From positions 30,690,001 through 30,754,000 of the forward strand of contig OZ260665.1 in NCBI GenBank assembly GCA_965285935.1: 64,000 bases of DNA, given 5' to 3'. The DNA comes from Ophelia neglecta. Lineage: Eukaryota. A program made the position numbers and the translations under genes. The notes beneath the pieces were generated by a model. It did no database searches. It was not told the origin of the DNA and saw nothing but the letters and a program-made list of their open reading frames with translations. Below, piece after piece: positions 7,801-56,600 of the stretch (position 1 is its first letter; the number at the start of each line of letters is the position of its first letter).

Positions 7801-8089
7801 CCAGGGATTTGTAAACATATTACGTGCTTAAGCTGTTTTGACATTGCTAACCTTCAGCCCATGCATCGCAGGGAATCGAAAATATATCGCATGGCTGCCT
7901 GGTATGGTATTTGTTGAATTTAAAAAAGAATGATAATTAATACTATGTCGTAGATAAGTAACGTCAAATTATCAGCTATGATTGTTCACTTATCTAACAT
8001 AGTTCATATACTAGTAAATACCACCTTTCTGCTCTAGAAAATCAGCGATAGAGGTAAGACGACAAATGTAACCGCAGTACAGCCACCTT

Positions 8090-8520
8090 CTGGCCATGCC
8101 ACCACCTCTAGCCCATGACACCACCTCCTACCCATGCCACCACAAGCAGCGCATGCCACCTCCTCCTACCCATGCCACCACAAGCAGCGCATGCCACCAC
8201 CTCCTACCCAGGCCTTACTCCAGGCAAGGCAAGAAGCTCCTACCCATGCCACCACCTCCTGCCCCGTACCCCAGGCAAGGCAAGGACCTCCTACCAATGC
8301 CACCAACTCCTGCCCCGTACCCCAAGCAAGGCCAGGACCTCCTACCCATGGCACCACCTCCTGCCCCGTACCCCAGGCAAGACCAGAACCTCCTACCCAT
8401 GCCACCACCTCCTGCCCCGTACCCCAGGCAAGACCAGAACCTCCTACCCATGCCACCACCTCCTGCCCCGTACCCCAGGCAAGGCCAGGACCTCCTACCC
8501 ATGCCACCACCTCCTGCCCC
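8090..8520. repeat. C-rich minisatellite: ~5.6 copies of a 51-bp unit (8237-8520) preceded by related ~36-39-bp units
   Basis: Unit ctcctacccatgccaccacctcctgccccgtaccccaggcaagaccagaac recurs at 8237, 8288, 8339, 8390, 8441 and 8492; it explains the overlapping repetitive ORFs in five frames. Confidence 0.95.
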
Positions 8521-20686: not shown

Positions 20687-21982
20687 TGTAGTGGACCCAG
20701 CTACTTTGCCTATGGTGTCTTCTTTGCCATAAATTCAAAACGCGTGTGTTTGTATGGTTTTATTTGAATGGTGAAGGTTTACACGGTTTGAACTGAAATA
20801 AAATAAAAAATAAACACAACTTAACAATTAAGACAAAATTCTACAATCACACATAAATATTGAGATCAGAAGGTTAATGACAAATTTTGCAAACAATTTA
20901 GAGAAACAATTAGACCTGAAATTGGGGTAATGAAAACACAAATTTGGAATAGTAACAAAGGAACCGTAGAACAAAGGGGTATGTGAACAAATACATATAT
21001 GGAATAGAGCTAACACTAGAAAAGTCACTAAACTTGACCAGAAGGAACATATCTACACTCACAAAACAACTAAAATAGGATTACAATATACTCAGAGGCA
21101 AGATACATATAATTTATGTAAGCAAACCTAGAATAACCTAGAATAATACACTATGATTATATGAACAACACATATAGTTATATATATAATAACTATAATT
21201 ACTGCAGTCACTAAGAAATTAATGCACAAAACTTAGTTAACCACTACACCGTATATAAGATATAGGCAGAAACAGGGAGATAGGACAAACTGTGCTAAAC
21301 ACACTAATAGGACTGGCCTACAGAATAGCCAAACAAGTTAATTAAGGTCACTGGCTTAAGAAGCCAGCTACATACACGGTACAGTGTTAAGGGGGCTAGG
21401 CCCACCCAGGCACATGGCTAACAGATGCTATAATATACAAAGGATAGAACTGACTACTGCCTTAAACACACATATTAAGCCTTTTAAAACATAAACTGAA
21501 ATAGTTATAACTAAAGGCGTAGGAAAAAAATACCATCCATGTATAGTACATGTGATGATCAGAAGTAATTGACAGTTATTACAGACTAAGGCAATAACAC
21601 ATGTGTGCAGATGGGCATTAAATACAAGGCAAAAACACTAAAACCTTAAATTGGCCAGAAAATACAGCCATTAAAATTCTAGCCTTATAAAACGTCAACA
21701 ATAATAACATTAAGATGTACTCACTACGCTGGCAGGAAAAAATAGTGATGAATGGTCCAAGATGTAGTAAATCTAAAATTATTCAGGGAGCAAAGAAAAA
21801 ACGGTGTCCAGGACTAGAGCTCCTAAAGACAAGCCTGCCGGAAGCCCTATCAAATTACAAGCTAATTAATTGAAGTGGGGAGCGGCTAGAAATATGTGGC
21901 TATCATGTACATAAACACACATGTACATGCAAACTAAACATGAATAAAACAAAAACAAAAATAAGGAATTTGGTCAGTTACA
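20687..21982 (-). repeat. 3' LTR of the BEL/Pao element
   Basis: tgtagtggacc...ggtcagttaca; same length as 28045-29340 (offset 7358); identical 66-aa ORFs at 20828 and 28186 in the track. Confidence 0.97.
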
Positions 21983-21992
21983 CCCCGGCCCC
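21983..21992 (-). promoter_or_regulatory. Polypurine tract (GGGGCCGGGG) of the BEL/Pao element
   Basis: G-rich tract immediately upstream of the 3' LTR on the element's sense strand. Confidence 0.8.
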
Positions 21993-22102
21993 GATGCATA
22001 AGTATAAACTTGCATTCTCAAAACCGAAATTGAACAAATTCTTACAAACAGTTATCTAAAATATCTGCAATCAGGAGTTACATAATACAAAGTCACGAAT
22101 GC

Positions 22103-25100
22103 TTATTTTACATCTGAGCCTTTAGACATCTCCAGGAGACACAGCTTGCTCATGGGGCGGTCGTATAGAGCATTGTTCATGCGTAGTTGCACAGACCTCA
22201 CGAGTCCATCGGATCCTGGGTAGACGGAGGTAACCAGCCCCAAAGGCCAGCGATGGCGAGGCGTATTTTCATGCTTGACCAGAACAAGATCTCCTTCTTG
22301 GAGGTTACGTTGCGGGTTTGTCCAACGTTGTCGTTCCTGGAGAAGGGGAAGATATTCCTTAACCCATCGGGTCCGGAATATGTCGGCCAGATATTGCACC
22401 TGGCGCCACCTTCTACGGTACAAATCATGCTTCGCGAAGACGCCAGGTGGAAGCGTGGGCCCGGCTCTGAGAAGTAGTAAGTGGTTTGGAGTCAATGGTG
22501 TTGGATCCTTTGGATCATCTGAGATTTTGGTAATAGGACGTCCATTTACGATACCCTCAACACAGCAGAAAAGGGTATGGAGTCCATCATCATCAAGTTG
22601 CTGCTCTTTCAACAGGGAATTGAGGATGGCCCGTACCGTACGGATCATGCGTTCCCATACGCCTCCCATGTGGGATGCACCAGGGGGGTTAAAAATCCAT
22701 TGAATGTCTTGTCGCTGTAGTTTGTTATCGATCTTGGCTTTGTCCCAGTCATGCAGAGCCTTGCACAACTCTGCCAGACCACCAACAAAATTGGTACCGT
22801 TATCAGAACGTATTTCATGAGGTTGTCCTCTCCGAGCAATAAAGCGTTGCAGGCAGTTTATGAAGGTGTCAGTTTCGAGGCTGACACTAACTTCCAGGTG
22901 GATTGCCCTAGTAGTCAAGCATGTGAAGAGGCACCCATATCTCTTTGCCTCACTGCGCCCACGCTTGACGAGGATGGGCCCAAAAAAATCCAAACCTACG
23001 AAGGTGAAAGGAGGACTTCCAGGAGTCACGCGATCTTTGGGGAGATCTGCCATGATTTGTGCTTGCACAGCAGCCTTTGCTTTCCGACATGGTATACATT
23101 TGGCAAGGACAGCCCGAACGACAGCCCCACCTTTCAGTATCCAGTAGCGCTGGCGTATCTCGGATAGCACGCGTCCCTTGCCGCCGTGACCTGTCTTACC
23201 ATGGACATCCTGGACTATCAGCTTGGTTACATGATGATGTGCTGGTAGAATGATCGGGTGTTGAGCATCAATCGGCAATGGTGCATTCTTGAGTCTGCCG
23301 CCAACGCGCCATACTTCCTCGCCTAGGAATTGAATAGGAGCGAGCTTTGAGCACTGACCCTTAGGGCTGCAGTCCAGGTTCCCTTTTTGAATATATGCCA
23401 AAATAGCCAATTCAGCTGTCTTGACTTCTGATACTCTTAATGGTGTAGTAATTGTGATATTCCTCTGAAGGATTTGTTTCCAGCGCAACAACCACGCGAC
23501 TGCTCTACGTAATCGATGCCATGATGAGAAATAACATAACAAGCGATTAGTTGGTGTCGGTTGCACAATGGTGTTATAGATCTGAGCACCACGCTTAATC
23601 TCTGCGGTGTTATCATATTTGGTCATTCCCAAATCTGCTTTATTTGGCCAACTGGAAGACTCCTCATTTGTCCAAAGGTACGCAGGACCATTTAACCAAC
23701 GGCTGGATTGGACGAGTTCCTCAACGGAGAGACCTCTCGAGGCATCATCAGCTGGATTGTTAACACTGTTCACATGCCTCCACTGATGTGGTTCAGTGAT
23801 TTCACATATGAAAGCGACGCGGTTAGCAACAAAGGTCTGGTAGCGTTTGTCTTGGTTTTGTATGTACCACAGTACAATCATGGAATCAGTCCAGAAGGTT
23901 GACTTTGTGACTGGGGTTTCTAGCTCATTCCGTAGCATTTGGTCTAGTTTGACCGCTTCAACGGCTGCAGCCAGTTCCAGCCTTGGTATCGTTGTTTTCT
24001 TCATGGGTGCTAGCTTTGCCTTTGAAACGAGAAAGGCAACATGAACAGAGTCCTCGGGACTAATGAGTCGCATGTATGACACGGCTCCGTAAGCCCTCTC
24101 GGAGGCATCCGCAAAATGGTGAATTTGGACTTCTTTAACTATGAAGCCAAGTGGTTTAAGACACCGGGGAATAGCGAGTTGTGCAACTTCGGGTAATTTT
24201 CCAACCCAACACTGCCACAGGATACAAATATCCTCTGGCATGGGTTCATCCCAACCGCAGTTTCTACGGCAAAGCTCTTGAAACAGCATCTTTGCCCTCA
24301 ATATCAATGGACTGGCAAAACCCAATGGGTCATAGATTGAGCTCATAAGGCTTAATAGGCCTCGTTTGGTGTAGGGCTTGTGTGTCACCTTCACGTCGAA
24401 CCCAAATACATCAGATTCCACCCTCCAAAGAACGCCAAGTGCTCTGTCAGAAGGAAGACTATTTTGCTCCAGGTCGACGGAGGCCATGACTTTGGAATGG
24501 TCGGCTTCTGGTATCTGTCTCAAGACAGCACGTGAGTTGCTGAGCCATTTTGTCAGTCTGAAACCACCACGCTTAAGCAGGTCGCAGAGCTGGTGGACCA
24601 GTCTGATGGCTGCGTCCTCTGACGGCACCGACTTTAGGCAGTCGTCGACGTAGAAGTTTTTACCAACGGTATCAACAGCTGCTTTGTCAAATTGGTGCTG
24701 ATTGTCGCTGGCGCAGCGCCTTAGGGCAAAGCCAGCGCAGCTGGGTGACCATACTCCACCAAACAGGTGGGCAGTCATCCGGTAAGCTATGGTATCCCTG
24801 GTGGTATCATTTTCCTCCCACCAGAGGAAACGGAGCACGTCTCTGTCCTTTGTATCCACGCGAATTTGATGAAACATCCCCTCAATGTCCGCCATGAGGG
24901 CTACTGCTTCCTGTCTAAAACGTATCAGAACACCCACAAGCTTATTGTTGAGGTCTGGACCTTGAAGTATGGTATCATTGAGCGAGACGCCTCGGTACTT
25001 TGCTGCACAGTCGAACACTATGCGAATTTTATCCGGCTTTCTCGGGTGTATTACTGGGTGATGGGGCAGGTACCATATGTTCCCATCACTATGATCAATG

Positions 25101-28009
25101 GCTTCAATGGGAATTTTCTCGGCATACCCTTTCAAAAGGAGGTCCTCGATACCCTGCGTGTACATGTCCCTCAGATTTGAGTCCTTCGCAAGCCTTTTCC
25201 CCAAGAGCTTGAGTCTGTGCTCTGCCATTATACGATTATCGGGAAGGTTTGGGGGTCTTTGCTTGAATGGGATTGTAGTCGTGTAGTGACCATCAACAAG
25301 TTTAGTGTCGTTTTCCCACTGCGACATGACTCGCCTGTCATTGATTGATATAGGCATGTTTTCCCGATTTCCTCCCAGGTCATCGATCTTGAAGAACCTT
25401 TCCACCTGCTGATGAAGGATCCGGTCTACCTGGACGAAGAGAGAGGTGTTATGTTTAGGACCTCTTGAGTCTACAGGTCCATTTAAGGTCCATCCCAGCA
25501 GAGTCTTAGTCGCATATGGTGCACCTGGTTCACCCGTTCTCACTTCACGAGGCATGATCAACTCGTTGTAGTCCTGGCCTATGATAATGTTAACCTCATT
25601 GGCGTCTATTTCTGGGAGCTGCAGATCATTAAGATGTGGCCACTTAGCAAGATCATCACGTCTGACAAGACTGGAGAGACCCACGTTGATCCTTGGCCTA
25701 GTCAGCACATGGTGTAGGGGAAATATATTGGAATCATGAATGTCAGAGATTTCAAGCCTGACAGCAAAGGCATCAACTCGATCATCCTCACACTCCAGAG
25801 TGGTGAGGGATATGGTCTCTCTTCTCTTTGGTGCTGCCAGTCCATCGGCGAGCGCCTCAGAACAGAATGTTTGGTTTGTTCCTGTATCTAACAGGGCATA
25901 GGTGTCGATGTGGGCACGTGAACCTTTAGCTCGCACCCGTACTGGTACAATAGGCAATGCCACCCTCCCAGAGTCACTTCCGGCGAAGTTACAGCTGGCC
26001 TGATGGGTTGCCTGTGGTGTAGATTGTGAATTGGTATTCAACGCCATGCCATGGGAGCCACTAGAACCATGCTGTGACATTTGATTCTGTGGTGTCACTG
26101 CCTGTGATGCCATCTGTGGCGTCATTGCTGCGCGTTGAGGTGTTGTCTGAGGTGTCGTATTTTGCTGAGGTGTTGTCTGTGGTGTCGTATTTTGCTGAGG
26201 TGTTGTCTGTGGTATCGTAGCGAAGTTTTGTACAGGTGGCTTCAGGTGCAGGAAAGAGCTGTGTTTCTTTCCGCAGCCATCAATTTTACACCTCAAATCA
26301 CGTGGACAGTCTCGTCCTATGTGATTTGGGCCAAAACAATTCACACAAAGCCCTTTCTGTTGGACTAGTGCAATTCTGTCCTTGATACTGAGCTGTTTGA
26401 ACTGGGTACAACGAATGACGTAGTGTGAACCCCCACACTTTATGCATGTAGGCGTCCTGTTATTGTTCATCGACGCTCCTCCGTCAGCCGCCTGAGGGGG
26501 AGCGGAAGTTTGTACCGCAAAAGCTCCCTTTCCTCGGGTTCGTTTTCCACTCTGTTTAGGAATAGTTGACCTCTGGTGTCCGACCGCAAGCTTTCCATAG
26601 ACAGAGTCGGACACTTCGTCGGCGATGCTCTCAACAAATCCCACCAAGTCACTCATACGAGGGTGCCGGCCAGATGACTTGATTTCTCGATTTTTTGTTA
26701 GCCACCGCCTCTTACATCTATCAGGGAGTTTTGTTATCATTGTACATAGGTTCTGTTGAGTCTCCAGTTCGTGAAGGTAATTAAGCTGCTGCAGGGTTTT
26801 CATTGCTCCACTAAGTGCATCAGCATACTTGCGGAAATCACCTTCTTTTACTTCAGGATAGTTTTGGATCTTATTTATGAACGCTTGGGCTACCGTGTAT
26901 TTGTCTCCGAAGCGTTTTCTAAGGATTTCCCTGGCATCCCGGTAGGCTACAGAGGGGTCGTGTATTACTTCACATCCTTCGAGGGCTGATCTAGCTTCCC
27001 CATTGCAATATTGAAGCAGGAGTCTCAGCTTACGCCCATCTGGAATCTCTTCATAGTTCACCATAAGGTCAAAGGAGTTAATAAACTTGCAGTAATTCAA
27101 TGGATTGCCATCGAATTCATCGAGCTCAACTGCTGGGGTCTGAGTAGACTGTACCAGAGCCCGAGTTTGAACCTGATTTTCATTTACAGCTTGGCAGAGG
27201 ACTTGAGTGAGTTCGAGCACACTTTGGTTAATCTGTGACTGATCAACCTGGTCCCAGGACCTGCGAGAAGAGGGATAAGGCTTGCTTCCAAGCTGTTTTG
27301 GTGTAGAGGGTCCTCCTTGTCGGAACTCTGGGCTAGACTCTGGGGTAGAAGATATAGGTCCAACAGGTATACTAGGGCTAGTCCCAAAGGGTTTATCTCC
27401 ACGTTCAGGTGTTTTGTCTTTCCAGGACTCCCTTTCTTGCATAGCCTCCATACGGATTCGCTGAGATTCAGCCTCAAGTCGCTTTAGGTCCAGCTGGGCG
27501 TCAATCCCCTGACGTTGTGCCTCTAACTGTTGCAGGTAGCGTTGTTTTTCCAACTCCATTTGTTCTTCGAACCTTTCTCGCTCAAGAGCCCTGGTCGCTC
27601 TGAGCATTTCAATTTCGGCCTTCATTTCTGACAAGAGATCATTACGAGGCAGGTTTGAGTCCTTGGCTGCTTCCTTATCTGCCAGCCAGTCGCTGACCAC
27701 GGCCTGCATTTCTTCAACGTCTTGTATGACAGCTGAGTAATACAGGTCTGATTCTGGCTTGCCATCATCTAACGTGTCATGGTATTCCTTATGAGCGTGC
27801 CGAAATTTAACGAACGCTCCTTCAAGGGCAGAAGATAATTGGTTTACTTGATCAGCATTTGCAAACGTGGGGTCATTCACAAGCTGATTAAGTTTACTGA
27901 TTGTTCGAGTGATGGAACCTTTTGCATAGGCACGTTTGGATTTTAAGTCCTTTTCCTGGTCAGCTTCTGCAGCGTTCTGATTAGCAGCACTGTTCAGGTT
28001 ATCTTCCAT
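22103..28009 (-). CDS. BEL/Pao Gag-Pol polyprotein, 1968 aa from the first ATG
   Basis: Three Gag zinc knuckles (CIKCGGSHYVIRC, CVNCFGPNHIGRDC, CKIDGCGKKHSSFLH), aspartic protease LLDTGT, RT YLPHHPV...FYVDD, RNase H HHFADASERAYG, integrase HH-CC plus GLDFFG/SDNG/VWERM, and a BEL-typical C-terminal RRRWRQVQ..WVKEYL domain. The track's 28096 start is a non-ATG codon inside the LTR. Confidence 0.97.
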   Translation of the reverse strand: MEDNLNSAANQNAAEADQEKDLKSKRAYAKGSITRTISKLNQLVNDPTFANADQVNQLSSALEGAFVKFRHAHKEYHDTLDDGKPESDLYYSAVIQDVEEMQAVVSDWLADKEAAKDSNLPRNDLLSEMKAEIEMLRATRALERERFEEQMELEKQRYLQQLEAQRQGIDAQLDLKRLEAESQRIRMEAMQERESWKDKTPERGDKPFGTSPSIPVGPISSTPESSPEFRQGGPSTPKQLGSKPYPSSRRSWDQVDQSQINQSVLELTQVLCQAVNENQVQTRALVQSTQTPAVELDEFDGNPLNYCKFINSFDLMVNYEEIPDGRKLRLLLQYCNGEARSALEGCEVIHDPSVAYRDAREILRKRFGDKYTVAQAFINKIQNYPEVKEGDFRKYADALSGAMKTLQQLNYLHELETQQNLCTMITKLPDRCKRRWLTKNREIKSSGRHPRMSDLVGFVESIADEVSDSVYGKLAVGHQRSTIPKQSGKRTRGKGAFAVQTSAPPQAADGGASMNNNRTPTCIKCGGSHYVIRCTQFKQLSIKDRIALVQQKGLCVNCFGPNHIGRDCPRDLRCKIDGCGKKHSSFLHLKPPVQNFATIPQTTPQQNTTPQTTPQQNTTPQTTPQRAAMTPQMASQAVTPQNQMSQHGSSGSHGMALNTNSQSTPQATHQASCNFAGSDSGRVALPIVPVRVRAKGSRAHIDTYALLDTGTNQTFCSEALADGLAAPKRRETISLTTLECEDDRVDAFAVRLEISDIHDSNIFPLHHVLTRPRINVGLSSLVRRDDLAKWPHLNDLQLPEIDANEVNIIIGQDYNELIMPREVRTGEPGAPYATKTLLGWTLNGPVDSRGPKHNTSLFVQVDRILHQQVERFFKIDDLGGNRENMPISINDRRVMSQWENDTKLVDGHYTTTIPFKQRPPNLPDNRIMAEHRLKLLGKRLAKDSNLRDMYTQGIEDLLLKGYAEKIPIEAIDHSDGNIWYLPHHPVIHPRKPDKIRIVFDCAAKYRGVSLNDTILQGPDLNNKLVGVLIRFRQEAVALMADIEGMFHQIRVDTKDRDVLRFLWWEENDTTRDTIAYRMTAHLFGGVWSPSCAGFALRRCASDNQHQFDKAAVDTVGKNFYVDDCLKSVPSEDAAIRLVHQLCDLLKRGGFRLTKWLSNSRAVLRQIPEADHSKVMASVDLEQNSLPSDRALGVLWRVESDVFGFDVKVTHKPYTKRGLLSLMSSIYDPLGFASPLILRAKMLFQELCRRNCGWDEPMPEDICILWQCWVGKLPEVAQLAIPRCLKPLGFIVKEVQIHHFADASERAYGAVSYMRLISPEDSVHVAFLVSKAKLAPMKKTTIPRLELAAAVEAVKLDQMLRNELETPVTKSTFWTDSMIVLWYIQNQDKRYQTFVANRVAFICEITEPHQWRHVNSVNNPADDASRGLSVEELVQSSRWLNGPAYLWTNEESSSWPNKADLGMTKYDNTAEIKRGAQIYNTIVQPTPTNRLLCYFSSWHRLRRAVAWLLRWKQILQRNITITTPLRVSEVKTAELAILAYIQKGNLDCSPKGQCSKLAPIQFLGEEVWRVGGRLKNAPLPIDAQHPIILPAHHHVTKLIVQDVHGKTGHGGKGRVLSEIRQRYWILKGGAVVRAVLAKCIPCRKAKAAVQAQIMADLPKDRVTPGSPPFTFVGLDFFGPILVKRGRSEAKRYGCLFTCLTTRAIHLEVSVSLETDTFINCLQRFIARRGQPHEIRSDNGTNFVGGLAELCKALHDWDKAKIDNKLQRQDIQWIFNPPGASHMGGVWERMIRTVRAILNSLLKEQQLDDDGLHTLFCCVEGIVNGRPITKISDDPKDPTPLTPNHLLLLRAGPTLPPGVFAKHDLYRRRWRQVQYLADIFRTRWVKEYLPLLQERQRWTNPQRNLQEGDLVLVKHENTPRHRWPLGLVTSVYPGSDGLVRSVQLRMNNALYDRPMSKLCLLEMSKGSDVK

Positions 28010-28044
28010 TGTGGAGTTCTGTATTGATGCCGTATTCAAACTAA

Positions 28045-29340
28045 TGTAGTGGACCCAGCTACTTTGCCTATGGTGTCTTCTTTGCCATAAATTCAAAACG
28101 CGTGTGTTTGTATGGTTTTATTTGAATGGTGAAGGTTTACACGGTTTGAACTGAAATAAAATAAAAAATAAACACAACTTAACAATTAAGACAAAATTCT
28201 ACAATCACACATAAATATTGAGATCAGAAGGTTAATGACAAATTTTGCAAACAATTTAGAGAAACAATTAGACCTGAAATTGGGGTAATGAAAACACAAA
28301 TTTGGAATAGTAACAAAGGAACCGTAGAACAAAGGGGTATGTGAACAAATACATATATGGAATAGAGCTAACACTAGAAAAGTCACTAAACTTGACCAGA
28401 AGGAACATATCTACACTCACAAAACAACTAAAATAGGATTACAATATACTCAGAGGCAAGATACATATAATTTATGTAAGCAAACCTAGAATAACCTAGA
28501 ATAATACACTATGATTATATGAACAACACATATAGTTATATATATAATAACTATAATTACTGCAGTCACTAAGAAATTAATGCACAAAACTTAGTTAACC
28601 ACTACACCGTATATAAGATATAGGCAGAAACAGGGAGATAGGACAAACTGTGCTAAACACACTAATAGGACTGGCCTACAGAATAGCCAAACAAGTTAAT
28701 TAAGGTCACTGGCTTAAGAAGCCAGCTACATACACGGTACAGTGTTAAGGGGGCTAGGCCCACCCAGGCACATGGCTAACAGATGCTATAATATACAAAG
28801 GATAGAACTGACTACTGCCTTAAACACACATATTAAGCCTTTTAAAACATAAACTGAAATAGTTATAACTAAAGGCGTAGGAAAAAAATACCATCCATGT
28901 ATAGTACATGTGATGATCAGAAGTAATTGACAGTTATTACAGACTAAGGCAATAACACATGTGTGCAGATGGGCATTAAATACAAGGCAAAAACACTAAA
29001 ACCTTAAATTGGCCAGAAAATACAGCCATTAAAATTCTAGCCTTATAAAACGTCAACAATAATAACATTAAGATGTACTCACTACGCTGGCAGGAAAAAA
29101 TAGTGATGAATGGTCCAAGATGTAGTAAATCTAAAATTATTCAGGGAGCAAAGAAAAAACGGTGTCCAGGACTAGAGCTCCTAAAGACAAGCCTGCCGGA
29201 AGCCCTATCAAATTACAAGCTAATTAATTGAAGTGGGGAGCGGCTAGAAATATGTGGCTATCATGTACATAAACACACATGTACATGCAAACTAAACATG
29301 AATAAAACAAAAACAAAAATAAGGAATTTGGTCAGTTACA
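28045..29340 (-). repeat. 5' LTR of the BEL/Pao element
   Basis: Direct repeat of 20687-21982; sense-strand AATAAA at 28117-28122. Confidence 0.97.
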
Positions 29341-41652: not shown

Positions 41653-44600
41653 GTAATACACTACTTCACTATACTATGATCTTTTATTACTCTACAGTTT
41701 AAGAAAAAGATCACTTCTTGCAAGACAGTACTTAACAAGAATACATTTACATCTGAACAGCAGAAAATCAAACGTTTTTCAGTGTGAAAAATAAGAAAAG
41801 AAATAGTTGGAGGTTGTTGAAGTTGTAAATGGAGCTCAAAGGAAGATAAGAACGAATGCCATTTTTTCAGGTTTATCAGAGAATAGTTAACAACTGTTTC
41901 TTAGAATAGGCTAATATAAATACAACTATTAATCATAACCATAAACATTAAAAAGCCATGTAGCTAAAATCTCTTCTCCCTTCTTCCCATAATATTAAAG
42001 TTTTCTTGCAGCAAAATAATATCACGAAATGACATGTGCCATATGCGAAAAATAATGAGAAAGAACAAAATCTTTCTGAAGAAAGGACATATCGTATTTT
42101 TATATTTCGTAACAACAACGAAGAGACTATCTATTTGTGAGAAGAGTGAAGCATTGGTGCGAAAGTTTTGTTTTGAGGGCAATGCTTTAATTTTCGAAAT
42201 ATACGAGCCTCTTCAAATAAAAAAGCGCAATTAATATATTGATTTGTAGATCCCTTAAAAGAAAATATATTTTTCAAGCAATTCAAATTTCAGCATCAAT
42301 TAAGAGACGACCGTTAAGGAAGCGAGTGATTTATGGAGCCTTTGTCTAGCTGCCAATGAGTTATGATGTTAACAGTGGCGCCAAATGGGCAATACCAATG
42401 TTTTATGATAATATTTTATCGTCATTGCGCCAAAAACGCAGCAAAGGAGTTTAAACTACCCGGACAGTGGATAGTACACATTGGCCGAGCAGTGCTCCAT
42501 TGGTTACTGGTTTATTGTCCCTTAATCAGGTGACATTCGAGACAATTAGCTACCAGTTAATGGTTCCTTATTTTTTTGGTACACTTTTTTCGCGAAAGCT
42601 TTTTACAAGTTCATAGTTCCTTATTAGTTTGACATTCGAGACATGCCAATCACCAGGTCTCTCAACCAATCAAATTGCCGGATACACCATTGACCTATAA
42701 TACTTACATATTTGGTTTCCATTCTAGATAACTAGTTACCAGTTCTTAGTACACTATTCCTTTGACATCCGTGACAAACTCACTAACAGTTCCGGTTTTA
42801 TTTGTTTATTTACTTTTATTCGTTCTTCTATTCACATTTTGCAAAGCCTATTTACTAGTTCCTGGTTACCTATTCGGTTAACATTCGACATAATCTAGTT
42901 ACCAATTCCTATAAGCTAGTTACCAACTCATGTTTACCTATTCGTTACCTATTCAATATTTGATAATACATTTTCCACATAAAGTTTTTTTGGCTATGTT
43001 TTTGGTTGATATTCTACACACGCTGCCTACCGCTTCTTAGTACCGTATTCAGTAAACATCTTAGACACGCCAGTGACCAGGTCCTAATGCCTTCCTTATT
43101 CGCTATCTATCCAGTTTTCATTTGCGTCAAGTTGGTTACTTGGTACTGGTTCCTCATTCAGCTGACATTTGCGTCAAATTAGTCACTAGCTTTTTATTCA
43201 GTAGAAATTCAAGACCACCTAATTACCAGTTCCGATGTGTATTTTTTTTACCAGTTCCTCGTATATTTGTTACATTCTATTTCACAATTTACAAATCCAT
43301 TAAGAAGATAATCCTGGTTACTTATTCGGTTTATATTCGAGAAAAGCTAGTTACTTAACCAACCTGTTCTAATATATACTTGCTTGAAATTTGGGTCAAG
43401 TTGGTTACGAATTCCTGGTCCCTTATTCGGTTGATGTCGAGGAAAGCTAGTTTCAAAAGCCTTTATCAGCTGTCGGTCGAAACAAGCTACTTACTAGAAC
43501 TCATTTTCTTACTCAGTTGAACTTCAAGACAAATTAGTTAGTAGATTCGAGTAGGGTCTTGGCACAGTTGAGATTCGAGACAACTTAGTTAACATTTCCT
43601 AGACTTTTTTTCGGTGGTCGTTCGAGACAAGTTTGTTTCCATTTCCTTGTTAGCAACCACGAATAGTGACCCGGGTTACAAGGCTTAACTATTTGTCTCG
43701 AAGGAGGTGTCCGATGTACTATTTTACGAGACCGAAGGCCGAGGAAAATACTAATTGAATTAGCATTCTAGACAAGCTAACTACCAGTTCCTAGTTTCTT
43801 GGTCAGTAGTTTCTACTTATATATTTACTAGTTCCTTGTTACCTAAGCTGTGGATATTCTCAAACACTAGTTTCTGGCTCTTATTAACGTTATCGTTTCA
43901 CATCCTAAACACCAAAAATAGTCTTTTATCATAAGGGGCAAATAAATTTCACAGATACTGCAAAATTTTACTGTCTCCTTATTTAGCTATGCAAAGCTTC
44001 AACTACTTTTCATGCCGGAACTAATATTGTATATCATCTGAGGGCTGTTAACAAAATAGGAAAAATTCGGAGCAATAAGCCAGGATTGCTGGTTGGTTTA
44101 AGTTATTTAGGTTTTATGCCAAACCGTTGTTGTATACGTGTAAGGCCTGTTCTCTGTAGGTAGCTTGCCTCGAATGTCAACCGAATTATGAAATAGGAAC
44201 TAGTAGCCAGTTTAACTCGAATGTCCGCCAAATAAGGAACATGCACTAGAATCTAATTTAGACGAATTTCAACGGAATAAATGAAGAATAAGGGGCTGCG
44301 GGCTGGCTACTTGCTTGTGCCAAATGTCAAGAGAATGGCCAGATAAAGTGGTGAATATTTATCCAGGAATTTGAAAAATGACTATTCAGCCTGCAGATTT
44401 CGTATCCATGGGTCAGTAATTTCGACACCAGTGCTGTGTTTCTACCGCTAACTTCAGGCAGAAATGGACCAGCTCTTACAAAGGCCACAAGTCTCGAAAA
44501 ATAAATCCAAATTTGAACATCGGCTGTCACTGGTATATCTCTAAGTTCTTACACGGGTGGATAATTTTCACCAACCTATTGCCTGAAGTATTTGTTACTC

Positions 44601-47600
44601 AAAGAAAGTAAATTATCTATTTATCTAAATGAAGAAGAAAATGTTCTGGCTTTGTGCAGCCTCCCTCCCCTCAGCAAAACTTTTAGTAACATCATGTTCA
44701 TGAGTGAAAGGATACGAATCTCTTATCAAAGGATTCAACGTGTGATGAGAAAGCATTTCTCTTTCTTACATATATGAAACAATATCCTGACGCAACTTTA
44801 AATCGGCATGCATACGTCAGCAAACATGTTAGAGAATTCCCCGATGGAAATAGACCGGTAGTTTGACCGATGTCTTCTAGATGTTGTCCTTACTGGTCTT
44901 TATTTAGAATCCACACTGGTTTGACATCTGACTTACGAAGGACTACAACGCGATACCTTTTCCAACATCCAGTGAAAGCTTACAAAGCTTTAGTAAGCAG
45001 TGCCGATAGATCTTAGATAGTGCATGTTTTACAACCTGCTATGAACTGGTATTAATATGGGCACTTGTGCATTTCCGGTTGCCTGATCATGAAGATCCAC
45101 CCCAGAGGCTATTTAATTGTTGGTTGCAAGGAAAGTAAGATGATTAGAAATAATGTCTTGAATTGGTTTTTGAATCAAGTATTGAGTTGACTAATTTATC
45201 ACACTCTTTTCTTTTCTAGGACGAAAAGAATCAAATTTTAACTTCCAATATATGGTTAAACATGGTAAGTGCACTAGTGTGTCCTCATCATTGAGCGACA
45301 CCTGATATAGGTGTTCAACTAAGTAGGGCGCGCGCTTAATTGAGTCTCGTTTTGTCTCCACAGGACGAAAAGAACCAAATTCTCAGTACAAATCTGTGGT
45401 TAAATTTGGTAAGTCCCCAAAATGATAAAGGAGGATAAAATAAGTTGAAACTTATAAAGGTGCTGTATATACGGTAGCCCATCGTGCGAAATTTGTAAGG
45501 GTAAAGCTCCAACAATTACGCGCGCCTCGTGGACGGCATCATTTTCGTTACACCCCAAGGTGAGTGAATCTATTTTATCTACCAATGTATTGCTTTGTGT
45601 AATACATCAAACGAAAGTTAGGAAATTCGTTGTCAATCCTGTGTACTGGCTTGATTTATCGAAATAGCTATTTGTGAACAATTCTCGAGCAACATCAAGC
45701 GTGGGCGATAGTAGGAGAAATAACACCTTAATTTCCCGTTGATGTCGGCTTGGTGCACTTTTCGAAGCTGAAACTTAGTAGACAGTACCTACTGATAACT
45801 GTTAACATATCCATGGTATCTGCTCAATTTAGAATGATGCGGTTTTTTTATCCTAGCCGTTCAAATAAGTTTCCGATGCGCGTGTATGTAAGGGCACGGC
45901 GCGCCTGTAAGAAAGGGCACTAGCCGAGTAAAGGGAACGTAAAAGTAAGGCAACGCAATTTCTGTGATTGTTGCTGTTCAGTTCCTGGCTCCTGGAAAGT
46001 GGTTCTTTTGCGATCTTTTACGTACAAATGTTCGACCTTTGCCAAAAAGTCACTGATTTAAGGCCATGTTTTCCATAGAATCACAATAAAACTCATTTTC
46101 ATTGATAAATTTATGACTGCTTGTATTTCAGTTTAAAAACTACGTTTTATATATATCTATATACATGTATTTACCTGTAGCTATTGCTAATTCTCTGACT
46201 ATAAACTTATATTTTTATAGGTATGGACCCTTTGCCCGACATGAACAGGGCTTACCATTGTGGCTATAGTCCACATGGGCCAACAACATTCAAAGATCTA
46301 GCTTCACATCTCATTGAGAGTCATGGCACAAAACCCATGAAAATCCGCGAGTTTGGGATTCACCCTAAAACGGGGCAGAGTGTCATGATTTCATAAATCA
46401 TAACTGTAAACGGTTCGAATATTGTGCCTCTGGCACCTGGCTCGAATTATCGATTCCTGAACAAACTTTAATGTTAATACTCTCGAGTATATATAAGTCT
46501 TGTTAATCAATTGTACCAGTAAAATGCTTTCTCGAAATGACCTGTCTTCTTCATATATGCGCATTCAACATCTATAATGTGAACACAATATGCGTTTTTA
46601 CGAAGGGAAGTACACTGCACCTGTCAGTGATGGTGGTCTGTGATTTGATAATACATTTTAAAAGCTTGTACCTAATGATTCTAAATATATTTTTAAGCAC
46701 CATTTAATAAGGCATATTAGCCTTCATCATATCACATCAATCAGTAAATAACTCAATTAAGGTAAAAAAAACGGAGTCAATGATCAAAAATATGTCTCGA
46801 AGAACGTGGTATGCTGTATACCAGACATCCTTGGTTTGATTAATCACCAATAAGACAAAAGTATAAGGCTTAAACTTCTACTAGAGTAGCTATCGAACAA
46901 TAAAATACAGATGAAGTTGTGAATTAAAAAGTTTAAAGTCAACATAAACGAGAAACGCAACTTGCAATATAGACAATTCTGCCGTTGTAAACTTAAAACT
47001 TGATCATAGGGCCTCTGGTTTCCGATTCCTTGCAGGCACGCTTTTTAGTGCACAGCAGCCATAACAATTAGGGTAACATTTTATGTATATATGCGTCTAT
47101 GAATATATCTATAAATATATATGACTCTCGTTCCTAGTAATGACACTTAAATACATTCCATTGTTATGTGTGCTTTTTTTTTATGTTTTTTGAGACCTTG
47201 TGGCCAGTTGAACACTTCGTGACAATCCTCAAATGGGCAGCGAAACTGTTTGAGGCTGTGTTTACCAATGTCATGCTTCCGTGGATATTCCTTGGAACTG
47301 AACTTTTTCCCACATTTGGAACAAGGATGAATTTCTTTGTTTGGATTTTTGTGGCAAATCTTCCGATGATTACACACAGATGACCTCGTTGCAAACTTTT
47401 TATTGCAAAATTGGCATGAGTGCATGAGTATTTCATGGTGAGCATTGGTATGGTCCGTTAGTTGGCACTGGAACGCAAACGTTTTATCACATAGTTTACA
47501 CCTCAAACCCGCAGATGAATGTACAGTGTCCATATGGGCTTGTAAACCCTGTTTGCTAGCATACCCTTTCCCACAGGAACTGCAGAGGTAACTTCTTGAA

Positions 47601-50600
47601 TGTACCGCACTGTGGTAAATGGCATCTGATTTGGGAGCGAACTTTTTGTCACACTTTGTACAACCATGTACTTTCTCGCCGTGCATGCGGCAGCAGTGTC
47701 TCTTCAGATTGAACAACTTGGGCGTTTAAAAATCACATTCGTCGCAGGAATACGATACATCATCACCATGCACCTCGTGGACACTTGTTTCAAGGAATTC
47801 CATGATTCTGAAATGCCAAAAAACATGCACAAATCGTTTATTAAAATTAACGCTGAGAGATACAGTGCAATATATTTCACAAAACATTGTGAAATAGACA
47901 AAATGGGCCGATCATATATAGATACCGCTCTTTGCAAAGGGCGTTATAGGCTAAGTCTTGTAAAAGAACCATGAAACAGGCTACACATACAATACAGTAT
48001 TGCGCTATTTAAACCGTGATTATAAAAATAGTACGATCTGCACGAATTTGAATCTATTGAAAACATGGCCTTAAATCAGTGACTTCGTGCCAGAGGTCGA
48101 ACATTTGTAAGTAAAAAATAGCAAAAGAACCATTTTCTAAGCCTGGAACTGAACAGCAACAGTCGCGGAAAGTGCGTCGCCTTACTTTTACGTTCCCTTT
48201 ACTAGGCTAGTGCCCTTTCTTACACGCGCGCCGTGCCCTTACATACACGCGCATCGGAAACTTATTTGAACGGCTGGGATAAAAAAACCGCATCATTCTA
48301 AACTGAGCAGATACCATGGACATGTTAACAGTTATCAGTAGCTACTGTCTACTAAGTTTCAGCTTCGAAAAGTGCACCAAGCCGACAGCAACGGGAAATT
48401 AAGGTGTTATTTCTCCTACTATCGCCCACGCTTGATGTTGCTCGAGAATTGTTCACAAATAGCGATCTCGATAAATCAAGCCAGTACACAGGATTGACAA
48501 CGAATTTCCTAACTTTCGTTTGATGTATTACACAAAGACTGTCAAGCAATACATTGGTAGATAAAATAGATTCACTCACCTTGGGGTGTAACGAAAATGA
48601 TGCCGTCCACGAGGCGCGCGTAATTGTTGGAGCTTTACCCTTACAAATTTCGCACGATGGGCTACCGTAGTATAAACAGTTAAACACAATCCTTGCCTAA
48701 ACCCGATTAGATTATTTTGAATGGTGATGTGATATTTCTGTTTATTTCTTAGGCTAAACAAATCGTTTTAACCAATATCAATCCTAACTATATTCCATAA
48801 ATCAGTTCCCAAACGATAAAACATAACATAATAGCTGTTGAATTCATCAGCTTCTTTTATCCTCGCTTACGTAGCAGCTGTCTTGGAAAAAATGTCACGA
48901 ATTGTTAATTGTTATATCAATTAGCACCGTCTTTGTGTGGTTCACTTAAGAAGTATAGGAGCAAGACTTATAGAGAAAGCTGAAGCAATCAGCCAATAAA
49001 ACAGGATTAATGCTCCCATTAAAAAATTTAAAACAATAATCTTATATTTCCAATTTGATGTAATAGGTAGTCAGTTTAAAATCAATTCATAAATGGTCAT
49101 AAGCATAAAATGCATGCTTACTAATGATTAATTCTGATCACTAAATTAATTCTTTTGGCAATTTACTGATATTAATTAAGCTGAAGGTATGGTTAAATCT
49201 GAATATGTCGCTTGCTCTCTGCTTCGAAAGACAATCACGAAGCACCGAAATATAAAATAATGTCTAAACAAATCAATATGTATAAAAGGCCCTCTAATAT
49301 CTATTCATCAGCGCTTTATGAAAGCTGACGTTTTGTTTATGAAGGCATGGCATCACAATTATAATTGATATGCTGATATTATTATTTTGATACTCTGCTT
49401 CAATAGCGTAAGGCATGGATGTATCAATGGGACAAATTACATTTTTGCTATCTGACTGAACTGACTTATTTAAATAAATGATGTGCATGCTATGTTTTTG
49501 TCTTACAGTATTCGATAAATCAAGTTATTTGTTTGATTCAACTAATTTCGCTCCTACTCCGTTGGCGAAGTGTGTGAATAGTGCATTGTACGGTGTACGC
49601 TGAACGTCGCTTCGTCAATTATTAAGATCAACGATGAATAACTAGAATTAAGCCTAACGTTTTAAATTATTTAGTGGATTTTTTCCCCAAATGTCAATAA
49701 TATTGGACAAGTTATTTATACTAGATATAAGATTCCGCATGTGTAGGTATATGGAAAAACTGAAAACGTTAATCAATTAACATAAACATCGCAAGGATAT
49801 ACAATAACTACCATACACAATCACTTTTTGGAGAAAACAAATTATTTCATTATCTTATATAACGCAGAGGTCTGATATAATAGCCGGTTTACTTTGGTAA
49901 GATCAAGTTAGCTAATGAATATCTCCAAAGATACCTTAAGGAAAAGTAAAACAAAACACGATTAGGGAAATACAGGACATTTACCCTCAGGGAATAGAAT
50001 ATTGTTAAAGAGTCACACGTCAATAGAAAATTACAACAAATTATAATCATGAACAACAAATTACATTCAGGTCTATAGTTTTTCATTGGGTTAGAATCCC
50101 GACCAATCTTTTTATTATCGCGGACTTTGTGTGATTTCTTGATGAACATCTCAACATTGGAAGTAACTCTTCTTGTTGATGTCATATAGAAGTCAGATAA
50201 ATTCAACTCCTGGGTCATTAGCATTGGAAAAAACCTAGATGTCTGGCAAACTGGCACGAATTGCCTCAACCTTATTTGTAAGAAGGAAAGGGCGGTTAAA
50301 AGGTCTTGATACTTGTAGAGCTGTGGAAATATATTCCTGCTTTGAATTGCTCCCTTAATTCAATTCGATTGAGCAAGTTTCAGAAAATACAAAAGAATTC
50401 TTTTTGCCCTGAAAACTTAAGGAATCTTTGTCCGGTTTGGGTCGTAACAGAATGGCAGAGAGCGGCAATTTTCACGTGGACATAGTACACGTTTGCAAAA
50501 ATAGTTTGAAGGTATATTTTCTTTAAACCACCATTGATTATATAAAGTGAAAGACTTTGAACAACAAATGTTTAAAAGACAGATCACTTATTATGAATTG

Positions 50601-53600
50601 CTGACAATGTCATTTTACTTCAGTAATTGGAATACACTCACAACTAAATGTGTTTCAACACAGTCTGCAATCTGACCAAAACCAACTCTTCACAGTCAAA
50701 GTGACCATAACACCATTTTCAAATCCTCTGGCTCCGCGGGATGGAAAGACAAAAGTGAGACCACAAACGTCAATTTAAATCAACCTCGGAGGCACTTTAA
50801 TGGTCCTAAATAACTTCCAACCTGTTATCAGACAGGCATTTATACTGTTTTTGAGACACTGGTTATGACGGTTGTCAACCACTTTTGAGTTATAGAGGAA
50901 TTTATGAGATGGGTTGATCTTTTTGGTTATGCTTTTTTCCCAAAACTTATTCACAAAGAGCTAAACCGTTTCATGTAATGATGATAGAGAATTGAAAGAA
51001 ACTATCCCATAATAATTACGAATCTTACCTCAAATTATTGACATTTTCGTTAGCATAATAAATTTTTCCCTTCGTAGCAGAGGTAGGGTACCCTACGCAG
51101 ATCTCGCCCCATCCAATCTCGGCCGTTAGACGTTTCTGAAATAAGTCTAACAATTATAATTAAATTAAATTTGGAAGTGTTCCATTGTAATTGGTTGTAA
51201 TGCGCCCAGTCTGTATGATAATTTGTAATACGTCCTGTCTGTAGAAGTCCCGTGACTCTATCTTGTCTTGTTATGTGTTCTCCTAAAAAAAGGAGCCTCC
51301 TCGTGCCCTTATGGATAAGGCGTCTGATTTTGTATCCAAAGGTCAAGTGTTTAAGTCTTGCCATAACCATTTGTTTTCTCTTCGTTTAAAACTATAATAC
51401 CAAATGGCATCAATTGTACTATTCTAAATGCCTACACAAGGGAAAGGTAGCTGCACGGAGTTCATAAGGCAGGTACTAGTTTAATTTAGATGCATCCCTT
51501 ATGATCTAAATCTTAAATGCCGGTCACTCATTACACGGTATGCATATGTAGTAAAACGTACGAACATATTTGCGACAAAATGTTCGTTTCGATCGCACAC
51601 GGTTGACTATCCAAGTGAGGGCTTTCCCAAAATTCCTAAATTTAAGGGCCAATCACATCGCATGCAATAAATACGTCACACAGCCGTCATTAAGCCTCAT
51701 TTCTGTTTACCTGGAAAGCTGCCGGCCGGAAACGCTTAACGGCAGAGGCTGATGGCAGCAAATAATTTGTAGAGGACATTACCTCCGCTACAAAGGGAAA
51801 ATAACGGGCGTCTATGATGTAATTTAAATATGTTGCTAGGATAAATATGAAAAAGGGAGGACCTATTTGATTTAAAACGGAAAGGATCCCCCTCCCTGAA
51901 ACATGTTTCCTTCAAGTAACGTCCAAGTCACTTTATCGCTTTATCTGATACAAAATGAACCCAAGTATTAATCACGTAAATCCACTTATCAATTACAACA
52001 ACCATGCTCAAACTTAGGATTCTACTATTTTAAAGATCATCCACAGGCATATATATTTTTCGAACCAAGTTTTTCAAACAATCCCAGACATATTCTGTTT
52101 GAGAATGTCAAGTTTTTCTCTTCTAGCCATTGACGAAAACAGGACGAGACTCAATTTAGTATACACAGCTATAGCCTACTATCTCTCTACTGGAAGTTTA
52201 CAATTTACATTCTCTACATTTTATAAGTAACGCCTATTTTGATGAACACACGATTTAACATAATTTCTCTTCCAATCTTTCATACCAGTTCACCCATCCT
52301 TATTTACATTTGGTTATTTTAATTTATATTATTCGTCATTAAGTGGTTTATTAATACTTTGAATCTTTGAACCTTTATATTATTCAATCTCTGGAAATAG
52401 AAAATCTATCGTGGAATTAAAATATAATACTTTTTTTTAATGCTTTCATAAATACGTGTTTATTTGAAACATAAATAACAATGAAATATTTCATTTTAAC
52501 GTTTCCTAGGTTTGGAATGATTACAACTTGGTTTGGAATGAATCAGAGTACGGTGGTATTAAAAGCATACGAATACCACCGTTAATTATTTGGAAACCAG
52601 ATATTCTGATGTATAACAGGTAAGAACTGCGTTCAATATTCACTACATGTTGAATACGACACAATACTCATACCAAAAAAATTCTACTTTATATAATTAT
52701 GCTAAAGTAATATGTTCACAATTATCATAGGTGCGCATCCTTTTTCTGTGTTATTCATAAAATAAAATTCCCTCTCTTTGTTCACAATAAGTAAATATTA
52801 AAACCTATAAGCTGGTACTATGTTAAAGCACATATTGCGAATGTCGAATTTCTTACCATTCATGACTGCTATTTCAACGTCTCTACCAGTGCTGATGAGG
52901 ACATTGATAGTACATATCCTGCAAACATCGTTGTGAGTTCCGACGGCAGCTGCCTCTGGGTACCTCCGGGCCTCTTTCTGAGTACATGTAAAATCGACAT
53001 CACGTGGTTTCCGTTTGACGACCAGCAGTGTAAGATGAAGTTTGGGTCATGGACGTACGATGGTTTGTCGATCAATCTCACGTTGCAAGACGAGGCTGGT
53101 GGTGATATTTCAGACTTCATGCCTAACGGAGAATGGGAACTCGTGGGTAAGATTGGTCGTAGGAGAAAGACAGAAATTCCATCTTAATTAAAGAATATCA
53201 CGAACAGTAATATTTAGTTGAATCAAGGTTGTATAGGTCATGCTATATTAACCAGTACTTGGCAGGTAGTTTAATGTGACATTTCATAGAAATAGATACG
53301 ATAATAATTCACGTCCGAGTGTGCCCAAACCTCTGAATCTAGTGAAGTGATTCGAAGAAATGAAAACTTAAGCAAGTGCCTAAGTCCTTACATTGTTCAA
53401 ATAAAGATTAATATAAGCGATTCTGCTGGCCGACAGTAAATTGTTGCATTTGATCTGGAAATAAAATCGTTGTGAAAGTAAAATTAATTTGAAACCTTTC
53501 GAAAAATGTGACACTTTGCATATATGGTTGGGAACAGGAAGTTGTCAAGAGAATTCTTTCAAACGGTGTTTGCTACTGCTTTGCAAGTTATTCAAACTGA

Positions 53601-56600
53601 ATGTTTATCCATCACTATGTCTATTTAAAAAACGCATATTTCCCAAAATGCACAGTTTCAAGAGTCCTTCCTCTGTGCACGGGTATACTTGCACTGGTAC
53701 ATTAGTCATTTTAGTCATTGTCTTTAGTATTTTACTTACATGTATATTGCCTATCCTTATACTCGCAGTTGACTATTCAATCAACCTCTTTATATGATAT
53801 TCGAAAGCTGATACTATATGTTTCTCAATCCATTGACCACACCGACGATAAGGTATAAAGAGGAACTTGACGAAGGTCCTTGATGGAACTCCATGTGTCG
53901 TTACTATCTGATGAAGCTTCCTTACGTCCTCTATCTATCAGTCCTTTGTGCCTTTTTCATTTTCTGTGATTCTGAAGACTTTATGGGAAAAGTACAATAA
54001 CAATAAAGACGTCCTTGTGGATGATTTTGTATTTTGTGTAGGGTTTCTAAAAGCGTTTTTCCTTACCTAATTATAGGCTGAGGGCATTTTTAACACTTGC
54101 CGTACCCAGTTAAAGAGTCGATGCTTTGACATTACCTGCAGTACGGCCAAGGGTCGGATCATTTGGCAGGCCTTCAGTAAACAAGAATTTTAAGCAAATA
54201 ATCTGGCGTTAAATTTTTTTGGATTCCAGATTTACTAAGTCGTGTTTTTCCCTTGAAGTCTTAGCAATTATAGAATGTGATTCAAACTATAACAATAAAT
54301 ATTTGTTTTATTAGTCTCTCTTTTTCAATGTTAGATTACTTCTGATCGTCACTGTCGTATGTATGAGCATATTTCGAAGGCCTTTACTAAGGCAATGAAC
54401 CAATTCGGGTAGTTCGAATGTTTGTATTGCATGGTACACTGTTATTTTGATTTTTGGTTCACACAATGATTAAGCTGCTTTTATATGTTCAATGCTTCCT
54501 CTAAGTTTAAAATAAACCTTTATAGAGTCTTTTTGTTCAATGACAGCATATGACAATACAAAGATGCAGACGTAATTGACGCTTATTTTGCCCTGCTTGC
54601 GTATCTTTGCAGGTGCACCGGTCAAGAGGAATGTTGTCCAATATGAGTGTTGTCCCGAGCAATATATCGATGTAACATTTACAATTAAAATACGCCGACG
54701 AGTTTTGTACTACTTGTCAAATTTGGTTGTCCCCTGTGTCATGATGTCGATCCTCTCGATGGGGGTGTTCTATATGCCTCCCGATGCAGGCGAAAAGGTC
54801 ACCTGCGGTAGGTTTCCATACCTTCATTATCTCTATTTCACCACAGCCCTGCTTAATTTTCGTTTATTTTCTGTTTTCATGGTATAGGTGTGCCCGCAAA
54901 GCGAAGTGTCGTACAGTACGACTGCTGCCCTGAGCATTACATAGACATTACTTTTACAATCCACATACGCAGGAGAACCCTATATTACGGGTTTAACTTG
55001 ATTATCCCCTGTGTTTTGATATCTTCCATGGCACTACTGACCTTCACATTACCCCCGGACGCGGGCGAGAAGATCTCGTTAGGTAGGTGTGAACTATCGC
55101 GACACGAGCACGTGGTCCTCCTTCCCCCCTTTTGCACATTTTTATTCGCTTTTTTGTCGTATGCACCGGACCAACATTCTAGATGTTCCTCTATGTCGCT
55201 CTGAGGCTATCTCTTCTTTGGAAACTGACCTCTGAACTTTGATTTTGACTTAGTTTTTTAAGTAACGTTGATGTTCAGCGTTTTAATAAATAAAACATTT
55301 GGTTCAGGTATACAATGTCAATTTTTTTCAGCTGTCGGATTTTATTTTTCCATGACAAAATAATTTTCGTTTCGATCGATTTCCGAGACATCGGTGAAGG
55401 GTGACGCGAAGAAGATTAGTTACAGCTCTATAAGAATATTTATTAATACACATTATAACATATACATATAATTGTTTATACGGCTATTTAACGACATTCC
55501 ATCAGTTACTGAAAATTTTCATTCCATTTGCCATAACTTTTTAATCCATAAAGATAACAATTTCAAATAAAATACATAAGCTTTCTCGTCTATCAAACTT
55601 TCTTACGGGGTTAATCGGTTTAAAATTTATCAGGAGACACCAGAGATACGTTCCCTTAAAGAGGTGAGGGGTCTCAAAATTTGAGGATTTTCCGTAAAAA
55701 TGATTGTAAAGAATGTAAAAGCACGGTTACAACAGTTACAAATGTTTAAAATTGAGTGCAAAAATCTTGACCGGGAGCGCAAACCGGAGAAAGTCGCGTG
55801 TGTTTGGCGCATGCGCAGTAAACAGGAACCAGAACTGCTCCCAAGGATCCCGCGCTCGAAAATCGTGAGTGAATATCTTTATTTTTAACAATATTAAGGA
55901 GTTTTATCCAAAACCGCGTTACAATGCAATGTAACAAGTGTTCGCGATTCACGTAGATACTTAATTTATATTTATATTTTTGCATTTCTGGTAAATCGCA
56001 AAGCATGAGTAAATTAGAAAAGAAAAAAGTATAAACAAAACACTAAAGACAGCGCAGATCTCCAGTTTAGCATTGATCTATTATTGTAAGAGATATGTCA
56101 CTGAAATGTTATCTCCATCATTTTATTGTTTTCCTGCATTAGTTTCCAATGATAATGAACCTCAACCGGAAGAGATTGTCGTTGGCATTGACTTCATGGA
56201 CCAACCGAGAGGTCATGGTAAGTCTGTAGTGAATGCTACGTGATTTCCGGTGATTTTATGTTTCGGTTACAAATATATTAACTAGGCTACAAATGGATAA
56301 ATGTTAAGATTCCGATCAAACTTTAATTCACTTTACAGTGTCAGAAGGTGAAAAGACAAGTCACAGTAGGTGAAAAGACAAGTCAAACAGATCAATTTTC
56401 AAGTGATCCTGGCTGAAGCCTCTTGTGTTAATTTGTTGGGCGTTCCAGTGCGTTCCGCTGCATTCTGATGCGTTCCTGTATTCAGTGAGAGCAGATTCCT
56501 ACCACCATACCGAAGACGATGTGGAGGCTGCACAGGATATTGAGGAGATAGAGTTGAAGGTCCAACCACCCACAGCTTTTGCCTTTCTTTCTCCTAGACT

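Follow-up and report, generated by a model that had tools for sequence, protein, structure and literature searches.

The stretch analysed here, called the window throughout, comprises 64,000 nucleotides of the Ophelia neglecta genome (assembly GCA_965285935.1, contig OZ260665.1, positions 30,690,001 to 30,754,000 of the forward strand), and all coordinates count from its first nucleotide. In an intron of an alpha7-like nicotinic acetylcholine receptor gene lies a DNA transposon of 3,200 bp (45470-48669), which is bounded by long terminal inverted repeats (TIRs) and a 5-bp target-site duplication (TSD) and carries two convergent open reading frames (ORFs), the larger of which is a seven-finger C2H2 gene. 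Its ends resemble those of the IS3EU superfamily. The features of the element, from left to right, are the following.

45465..45469, no strand: left copy of the TSD, GTATA.
45470..46083, plus strand: left TIR, 614 bp, GC content 0.42, with a CpG observed/expected ratio of 1.18 against 0.77 for the window.
45470..45481, plus strand: IS3EU-type terminus (TAYGG), identical at 11 of 12 positions to the starts of IS3EU-2, -5 and -7_PGr.
45557..45565, plus strand: splice donor AAG/GTGAGT, a perfect consensus pointing inward, at which a putative non-coding first exon within the TIR would end.
46195..46220, plus strand: acceptor-like site (branch-point-like CTGAC, T-rich tract, TAG), 2 nt ahead of the ATG of the left ORF.
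46223..46396, plus strand: left ORF, 57 amino acids, with one degenerate C2H2-like finger at 46259-46324.
46472..47146, no strand: AT-rich spacer between the two stop codons, GC content 0.33, with no Pfam match in any frame.
47147..47803, minus strand: seven-finger C2H2 gene, intronless, 218 codons, with an in-frame TAA at 47728-47726 (codon 26, finger 1).
47808..47830, minus strand: acceptor-like site (T-rich tract, TTTCAG; AG at 47809-47808), 4 nt ahead of the zinc-finger ATG.
48049..48669, minus strand: right TIR, 621 bp, carrying the mirrored donor (48582-48574) and the IS3EU-type terminus (48669-48658).
48670..48674, no strand: right copy of the TSD, GTATA.

A preliminary description of this DNA had proposed a 3200-bp element with TIRs of about 610 bp and a GTATA duplication, and both this outline and the boundaries it gave proved exact. 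The two TIRs are 94.1% identical across 623 columns and differ by 26 substitutions, one 9-nt indel and one 2-nt indel. These substitutions are scarce in the outer 300 nt, which hold just 3 of the 26 (binomial p = 1e-4); counted per 100 nt from outside to inside they number 0, 2, 1, 4, 7 and 10, with a further 2 in the final 14 nt. This inward-rising divergence suggests that the outer arms have been homogenised by conversion or repair, or that they are under selection for transposase binding. Both TIRs are CpG-rich, with observed/expected ratios near 1.2. In the inner part of the left TIR (45885-45955) and at the mirrored position of the right one, several loosely repeated GTAAG(G/A)-GGC-like motifs can be read from the sequence, the exact repeats being just pairs of 7-mers; these are possible protein-binding or promoter elements.

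The duplication was assessed at terminus offsets from -3 to +3 and for lengths from 2 to 10. Perfect duplications were limited to two: the 5-mer at offset 0, which would arise at a given boundary with a probability of about 0.002, and TA at offset +2. There was no in-register 6-bp duplication at offsets -3 to +3, and at lengths of 8, 9 and 10 bp the flanking bases agreed at the TIR boundary in 2/8, 3/9 and 2/10 positions, respectively. Together with the zinc-finger gene, the TIRs and this test bear out the proposal of a TIR-type DNA transposon with a 5-bp duplication and a C2H2 cargo. The TA duplication is the basis of an alternative already raised in the preliminary description, namely a Tc1/mariner/pogo-type element with CGGTAG ends, spanning 45472-48667. 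TA does flank both ends perfectly, but this weaker reading leaves the exact GTATA repeat to chance and makes TA part of a motif that would match IS3EU ends by accident, so that it is highly improbable; two-gene L31/mariner elements were not found described in the open-access text searched. Neither a second copy nor a solo TIR of the element occurs within the 64-kb window. The element is known here from one copy and a single insertion, which does not fix the normal TSD length of its family.

The classification of the element rests on its termini. The ends, TACGG..CCGTA, agree with the published IS3EU/GingerRoot signature TAYGG..CCRTA. In the literature, IS3EU termini are "always" TA..TA, TSDs are usually 6 bp, and GingerRoot is grouped with IS3EU (PMC10045372), while the fungal IS3EU families have TAYGG..CCRTA ends, 6-bp TSDs and TIRs of ">30 bp" (PMC12730594). 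In Table S1 of the latter source, where rows are numbered up to 160 or beyond and families such as hAT7, Harbinger, EnSpm and Kyakuja are included, 26 of the 27 IS3EU rows start with TAYGG. A word-start search of the same table returned 13 TACGG and 13 TATGG, and since these are the same 26 IS3EU rows, no other family in the accessible table starts with TAYGG. Compared by eye with the 27 fungal IS3EU rows, the first 12 nt of the element are identical at 11 positions in 3 of them and at 10 positions in 7 more. When the fungal IS3EU 12-mer was searched for in the window with at most one mismatch, two matches were obtained, exactly at both ends of the element, where 0.12 were expected and 2 of 100 shuffles reached two. 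At one fixed position, the chance of such a match is 1.1e-6, or about 3e-5 after picking the best of 27. Non-autonomous elements are classifiable by terminal similarity of this kind (Dfam authors, PMC7805219), and IS3EU is present in animals, having been recorded in oyster, hydra, acorn worm, beetle and zebrafish (PMC11934779, family names in the supplement of PMC10045372, PMC6839031).

The element had earlier been placed in an unclassified and possibly undescribed family. This is not supported, the termini fitting a signature that was absent from the candidates then considered, and an undescribed family is probably not at hand. A broader version, in which an undescribed superfamily has ends merely converging on the IS3EU motif, could appeal to a combination of 5-bp TSD, TIRs of about 615 bp and C2H2 genes that was not found in open-access text, and to two ORFs that both lack a close relative. 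Yet an 11/12 match to the ends of a known superfamily that occurs in animals is the simpler explanation, and TSD length varies in integrase-like groups, being 4 or 5 bp in Ginger2/TDD (PMC2836005) and 3-5 bp in IS3 (PMC10045372, PMC2836005). An undescribed superfamily is thus unlikely.

The preliminary description had also noted a loose resemblance of TACGGTA to the RAG heptamer CACAGTG. By eye, 4 of 7 positions agree with the heptamer as quoted; the invariant CAC is absent and the RAGL consensus has no terminal match, and the weak resemblance was rejected. Elements of the MuDR type have long TIRs that serve as inward promoters of two convergent genes, and a TSD of about 9 bp. Long TIRs, convergent genes and a gene cargo thus recall MuDR and Pack-MULEs, the inward promoters of the present element being a proposal only, but its TSD is not of about 9 bp, its ends are different and it has no Mutator transposase. 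A Transib/RAG-like origin would agree with the 5-bp TSD and the convergent gene pair, as RAGL elements share both and occur in molluscs and nemerteans; their ends and those of Transib, however, begin with the invariant CAC, where the element has TAC (PMC7204232). With up to 3 mismatches allowed, the protostome RAGL consensus matched 11 times where 21 matches were expected, and the RAGL-consensus pair found within the TIRs has a subterminal position and an outward orientation. The element also lacks the A-rich block, RAG1L, RAG2L and the Transib transposase. Academ makes TSDs of 3-4 bp (AcademX) or 9-10 bp (AcademH) (PMC10045372). The earlier judgement that Transib/ProtoRAG, MuDR and Academ do not fit was therefore sound, given the CAC ends, the TSD lengths and the lack of any such transposase, and a derivative of one of these groups is only remotely likely.

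The coding content is that of a non-autonomous element. The right-hand gene, which starts at 47803 and ends at 47147, encodes seven C2H2 fingers, and no other domain was found. It had been correctly described as a seven-finger gene pointing inward from the right TIR, but the stop at codon 26, which interrupts finger 1, had not been stated. The portion after this stop matches Pfam zf-C2H2 with E = 1e-15. With these 192 amino acids as query, 3 of 13 candidates proved to be relatives, at 27-32% identity, and the ESM Atlas returned generic C2H2 clusters.

The left ORF was earlier called a truncated single-finger ORF pointing inward from the left TIR. An inward ORF with a finger-shaped motif is indeed present; the motif, however, is degenerate (C-x2-S-x12-H-x4-H, with Ser at the second Cys position) and has no Pfam match at E<=1, and "truncated" for the ORF, like "internally deleted" for the element, goes beyond what one copy can show. 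Its frame continues for 24 codons beyond the stop, to 46471. A word-index search among longer proteins brought up two candidates, neither of which passed, while phmmer against 1.84 billion proteins gave two matches at 30-35% identity, both long proteins with repeated finger-like units and neither with a transposase domain. The ESM Atlas placed the ORF in unnamed clusters with a weak recognition score. The possibility that the two ORFs are paralogues was considered and rejected (E = 0.04, 20% identity over 35 amino acids).

No transposase was found in a six-frame Pfam scan of the whole element read through stops, in which the matches comprised zinc-finger types and one weak domain of unknown function, all over the finger gene. 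Since the scan yielded no transposase, the element is non-autonomous. Its cargo genes are damaged, one by the stop at codon 26 and the other by Ser in place of the second Cys. The spacer contains AATAAA and ATTAAA, poly(A)-type signals that were left unused because they are expected in AT-rich DNA anyway. Rfam gave no matches, and a search of bacterial and archaeal genomes with a probe of 19 terminal nt gave one match, confined to those 19 nt, where about 4 were expected by chance.

The element is best explained as a non-autonomous DNA transposon that descends from the IS3EU/GingerRoot group or is mobilised by it, the transposases of this group being integrase-like DDE enzymes; we give this a probability of roughly 0.78. 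The element is IS3EU-like and not a proven member of IS3EU, as no transposase remains in it. It is classed in this manner because its TSD is not of 6 bp and because the copy has no transposase by which the family could be judged. According to the proposed mechanism, a transposase made elsewhere in the genome would have used roughly the terminal 12-30 bp as its recognition sequence, and insertion would have proceeded with a stagger of 5 nt; the ends point to an IS3EU-type integrase-like enzyme acting in trans. The element would have moved, or could move, without its cargo, given that the outer arms are near-identical around a decayed interior and that no intact protein is encoded.

Several points weigh against an IS3EU-type assignment. 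The usual TSD of IS3EU is 6 bp long, whereas the present one has 5 bp, and a 6-bp duplication requires an assumed 1-nt deletion at one junction. Styx, too, makes 6-bp TSDs (PMC10853768), and the exceptions recorded for GingerRoot are longer only, 7-8 bp in 6/77 elements, while the TIRs of about 615 bp exceed its 100-150 bp by 4-6x (PMC6839031). No transposase sequence links the element to IS3EU, a C2H2 cargo in IS3EU was not found described in a limited search of open-access text, and a single copy has been seen. The terminal comparison was made with fungal IS3EU families. Finally, the number of perfect MAG/GTRAGT donors in the window, two, both of them those of the TIR pair, matches chance (1.81 expected; 56/100 shuffles reach two). 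As to the duplication, a lineage shift in TSD length appears plausible by analogy, because Ginger2/TDD makes 4 or 5 bp.

The 5-bp duplication would be explained directly by a non-autonomous hAT5-type element, the main named rival and one absent from the preliminary description, or by another known TA-ended family with a duplication of this length. hAT5 belongs to an animal hAT lineage and is defined by its 5-bp TSDs, an exact fit (PMC12730594). It would, however, leave the 11/12 match to IS3EU ends unexplained, and the copy has no hAT domain, though a non-autonomous copy need not carry one. Long TIRs with two convergent genes are also atypical of hAT elements. No hAT5 terminal sequences were found in the open-access literature, and the text of the GingerRoot supplement gives no termini. 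An origin of this kind is considered improbable.

Because the number of perfect donors equals the chance expectation, only their position counts. This position inside the TIR is notable, with an estimated chance of about 1% for one TIR. Both ATGs stand in good context just past the acceptor-like sites, which, like the inner TIR motifs, were recognised from the letters themselves. These signals suggest that both ORFs may be expressed from the TIRs. On the simplest reading, each long TIR would supply a promoter plus a first exon, short and non-coding, and the donor (45559/45560 and its mirror) would be spliced across most of the arm to the acceptor before each ATG. One duplicated TIR cassette would in this way drive both genes inward.

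The origin of the finger gene can be seen in two ways, the first of which is slightly favoured: the seven-finger exon may be host DNA that was captured together with its own splice acceptor. GingerRoot provides the precedent. Its elements, 3.9-12.9 kb long, have TA..TA ends in 72/77 cases; gene fragments comprising intron plus exon occur in 22/77, and the DDE motif is kept in only 6/22 of these (Cerbin et al. 2019, PMC6839031). Capture is favoured because GingerRoot takes up intron-plus-exon DNA in this manner and often loses its transposase. The TA..TA ends, the capture of host intron-plus-exon DNA and the frequent loss of the transposase are the points of likeness. Unlike the present element, GingerRoot has TSDs of 6 bp (rarely 7-8) and a fragmentary cargo, whereas the cargo here resembles a whole finger array behind a TIR splice donor.

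In the second view, a sub-case of the IS3EU-type origin, the seven-finger gene would be the element's own second gene, the left ORF either a remnant of the transposase gene or a small third gene, and the copy an internal-deletion derivative. Described IS3EU elements encode two proteins (PMC8232023), and fungal ones a transposase and an alpha-kinase in opposite orientations, the available text not stating whether these are convergent or divergent (PMC12730594). The two-gene plan and the symmetry with which both genes are wired to the TIR donors, with ATGs in good context right past the acceptors, speak for a native gene. However, the only second gene named for IS3EU in the literature consulted is the alpha-kinase, and in fungi; moreover, the left ORF has no transposase-linked relative and the zinc-finger protein no close one. 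A native second gene is thus a possibility to be kept in mind, though clearly not the expected outcome.

Compared with IS3EU as described, the element is alike in its TA..TA and TAYGG..CCRTA ends, in having TIRs, in its occurrence in an invertebrate and in the first 12 nt shared at 11 positions with three fungal families. It differs in its 5-bp TSD, its C2H2 genes and its TIRs of about 615 bp, and in lacking a DDE transposase and an alpha-kinase, its two convergent ORFs being neither. No IS3EU element described as having long TIRs, C2H2 genes or a TSD of 5 bp came up in a limited search of open-access text, which did not extend to Repbase Reports, where IS3EU is mostly described.

IS3EU is widespread and has been called poorly characterised or largely unexplored (PMC11934779, PMC8232023), with descriptions almost only in Repbase. 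A variant with a 5-bp TSD, long TIRs and zinc-finger genes would widen the definition of the superfamily, and its TIR offers a probe for the autonomous parent. More speculatively, and with more doubt than confidence, a spiralian IS3EU lineage might have shifted to 5-bp duplications and to TIRs of about 615 bp that act as paired promoter/first-exon cassettes and express any exon with its own acceptor. Such a mobile gene trap, carrying and multiplying multi-finger C2H2 genes, would give a concrete route for the expansion of zinc-finger families in invertebrates. Should the finger gene be expressed from the TIR in intact copies, the spread of tandem C2H2 genes by DNA transposons in invertebrates, beyond their being targets of these genes, would become directly testable. 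As seen now, the element is one intronic insertion, decayed and non-autonomous, of a sort that is nothing unusual in a genome like this.

The receptor gene that hosts the element extends from 41507 to 62239 on the plus strand and includes two tandem exon pairs, 3a/3b and 7a/7b. Its exons are numbered after the vertebrate alpha7 layout. The first pair lies directly upstream of the element:

45220..45408, plus strand: tandem exons 3a (45220-45264) and 3b (45364-45408) of the alpha7-like receptor, 45 nt each.

The element sits in the intron after exon 3b and starts 61 nt past it; the next receptor exon after the element is at 52510-52619. The TIR donor is strong and lies 151 nt past the donor of exon 3b, where it could possibly disturb 3a/3b splicing. 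Exons 3a and 3b are identical at 35/45 nt, and a duplicated exon 3 is known in insect alpha6 (PMC1919356). The second pair, 7a (54613-54807) and 7b (54888-55082), has 195 nt in each exon, 121/195 of them identical, and exons 5 and 6 appear fused (52890-53146); no first exon was located. The exon pair that covers the ligand loop with its vicinal cysteines (Cys-Cys) may constitute a mutually exclusive cassette of its own. For the last exon of the receptor, the closest proteins among the best 120 of 398 matches come from annelids and nemerteans (52-54% identity, Capitella first), and the gene is probably that of an annelid or relative.

In the intron before exon 3a, an array of degenerate repeats of about 40 bp occupies 42490-44205, with a spacing of 70-400 bp and one inverted copy. 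Farther upstream, at 20687-29340, lies a long terminal repeat (LTR) retrotransposon which, going by its motifs, we take to be of BEL/Pao type. It carries an ORF at 22103-28117 on the minus strand, a stop-free frame of 2,004 codons, between two identical LTRs of about 1,296 bp, and is flanked by a 5-bp duplication, CCCTA; it is a very recent insertion. A C-rich minisatellite with 19- and 51-bp units is found at 8064-8569, and the proline-rich open frames within it are probably not genes.

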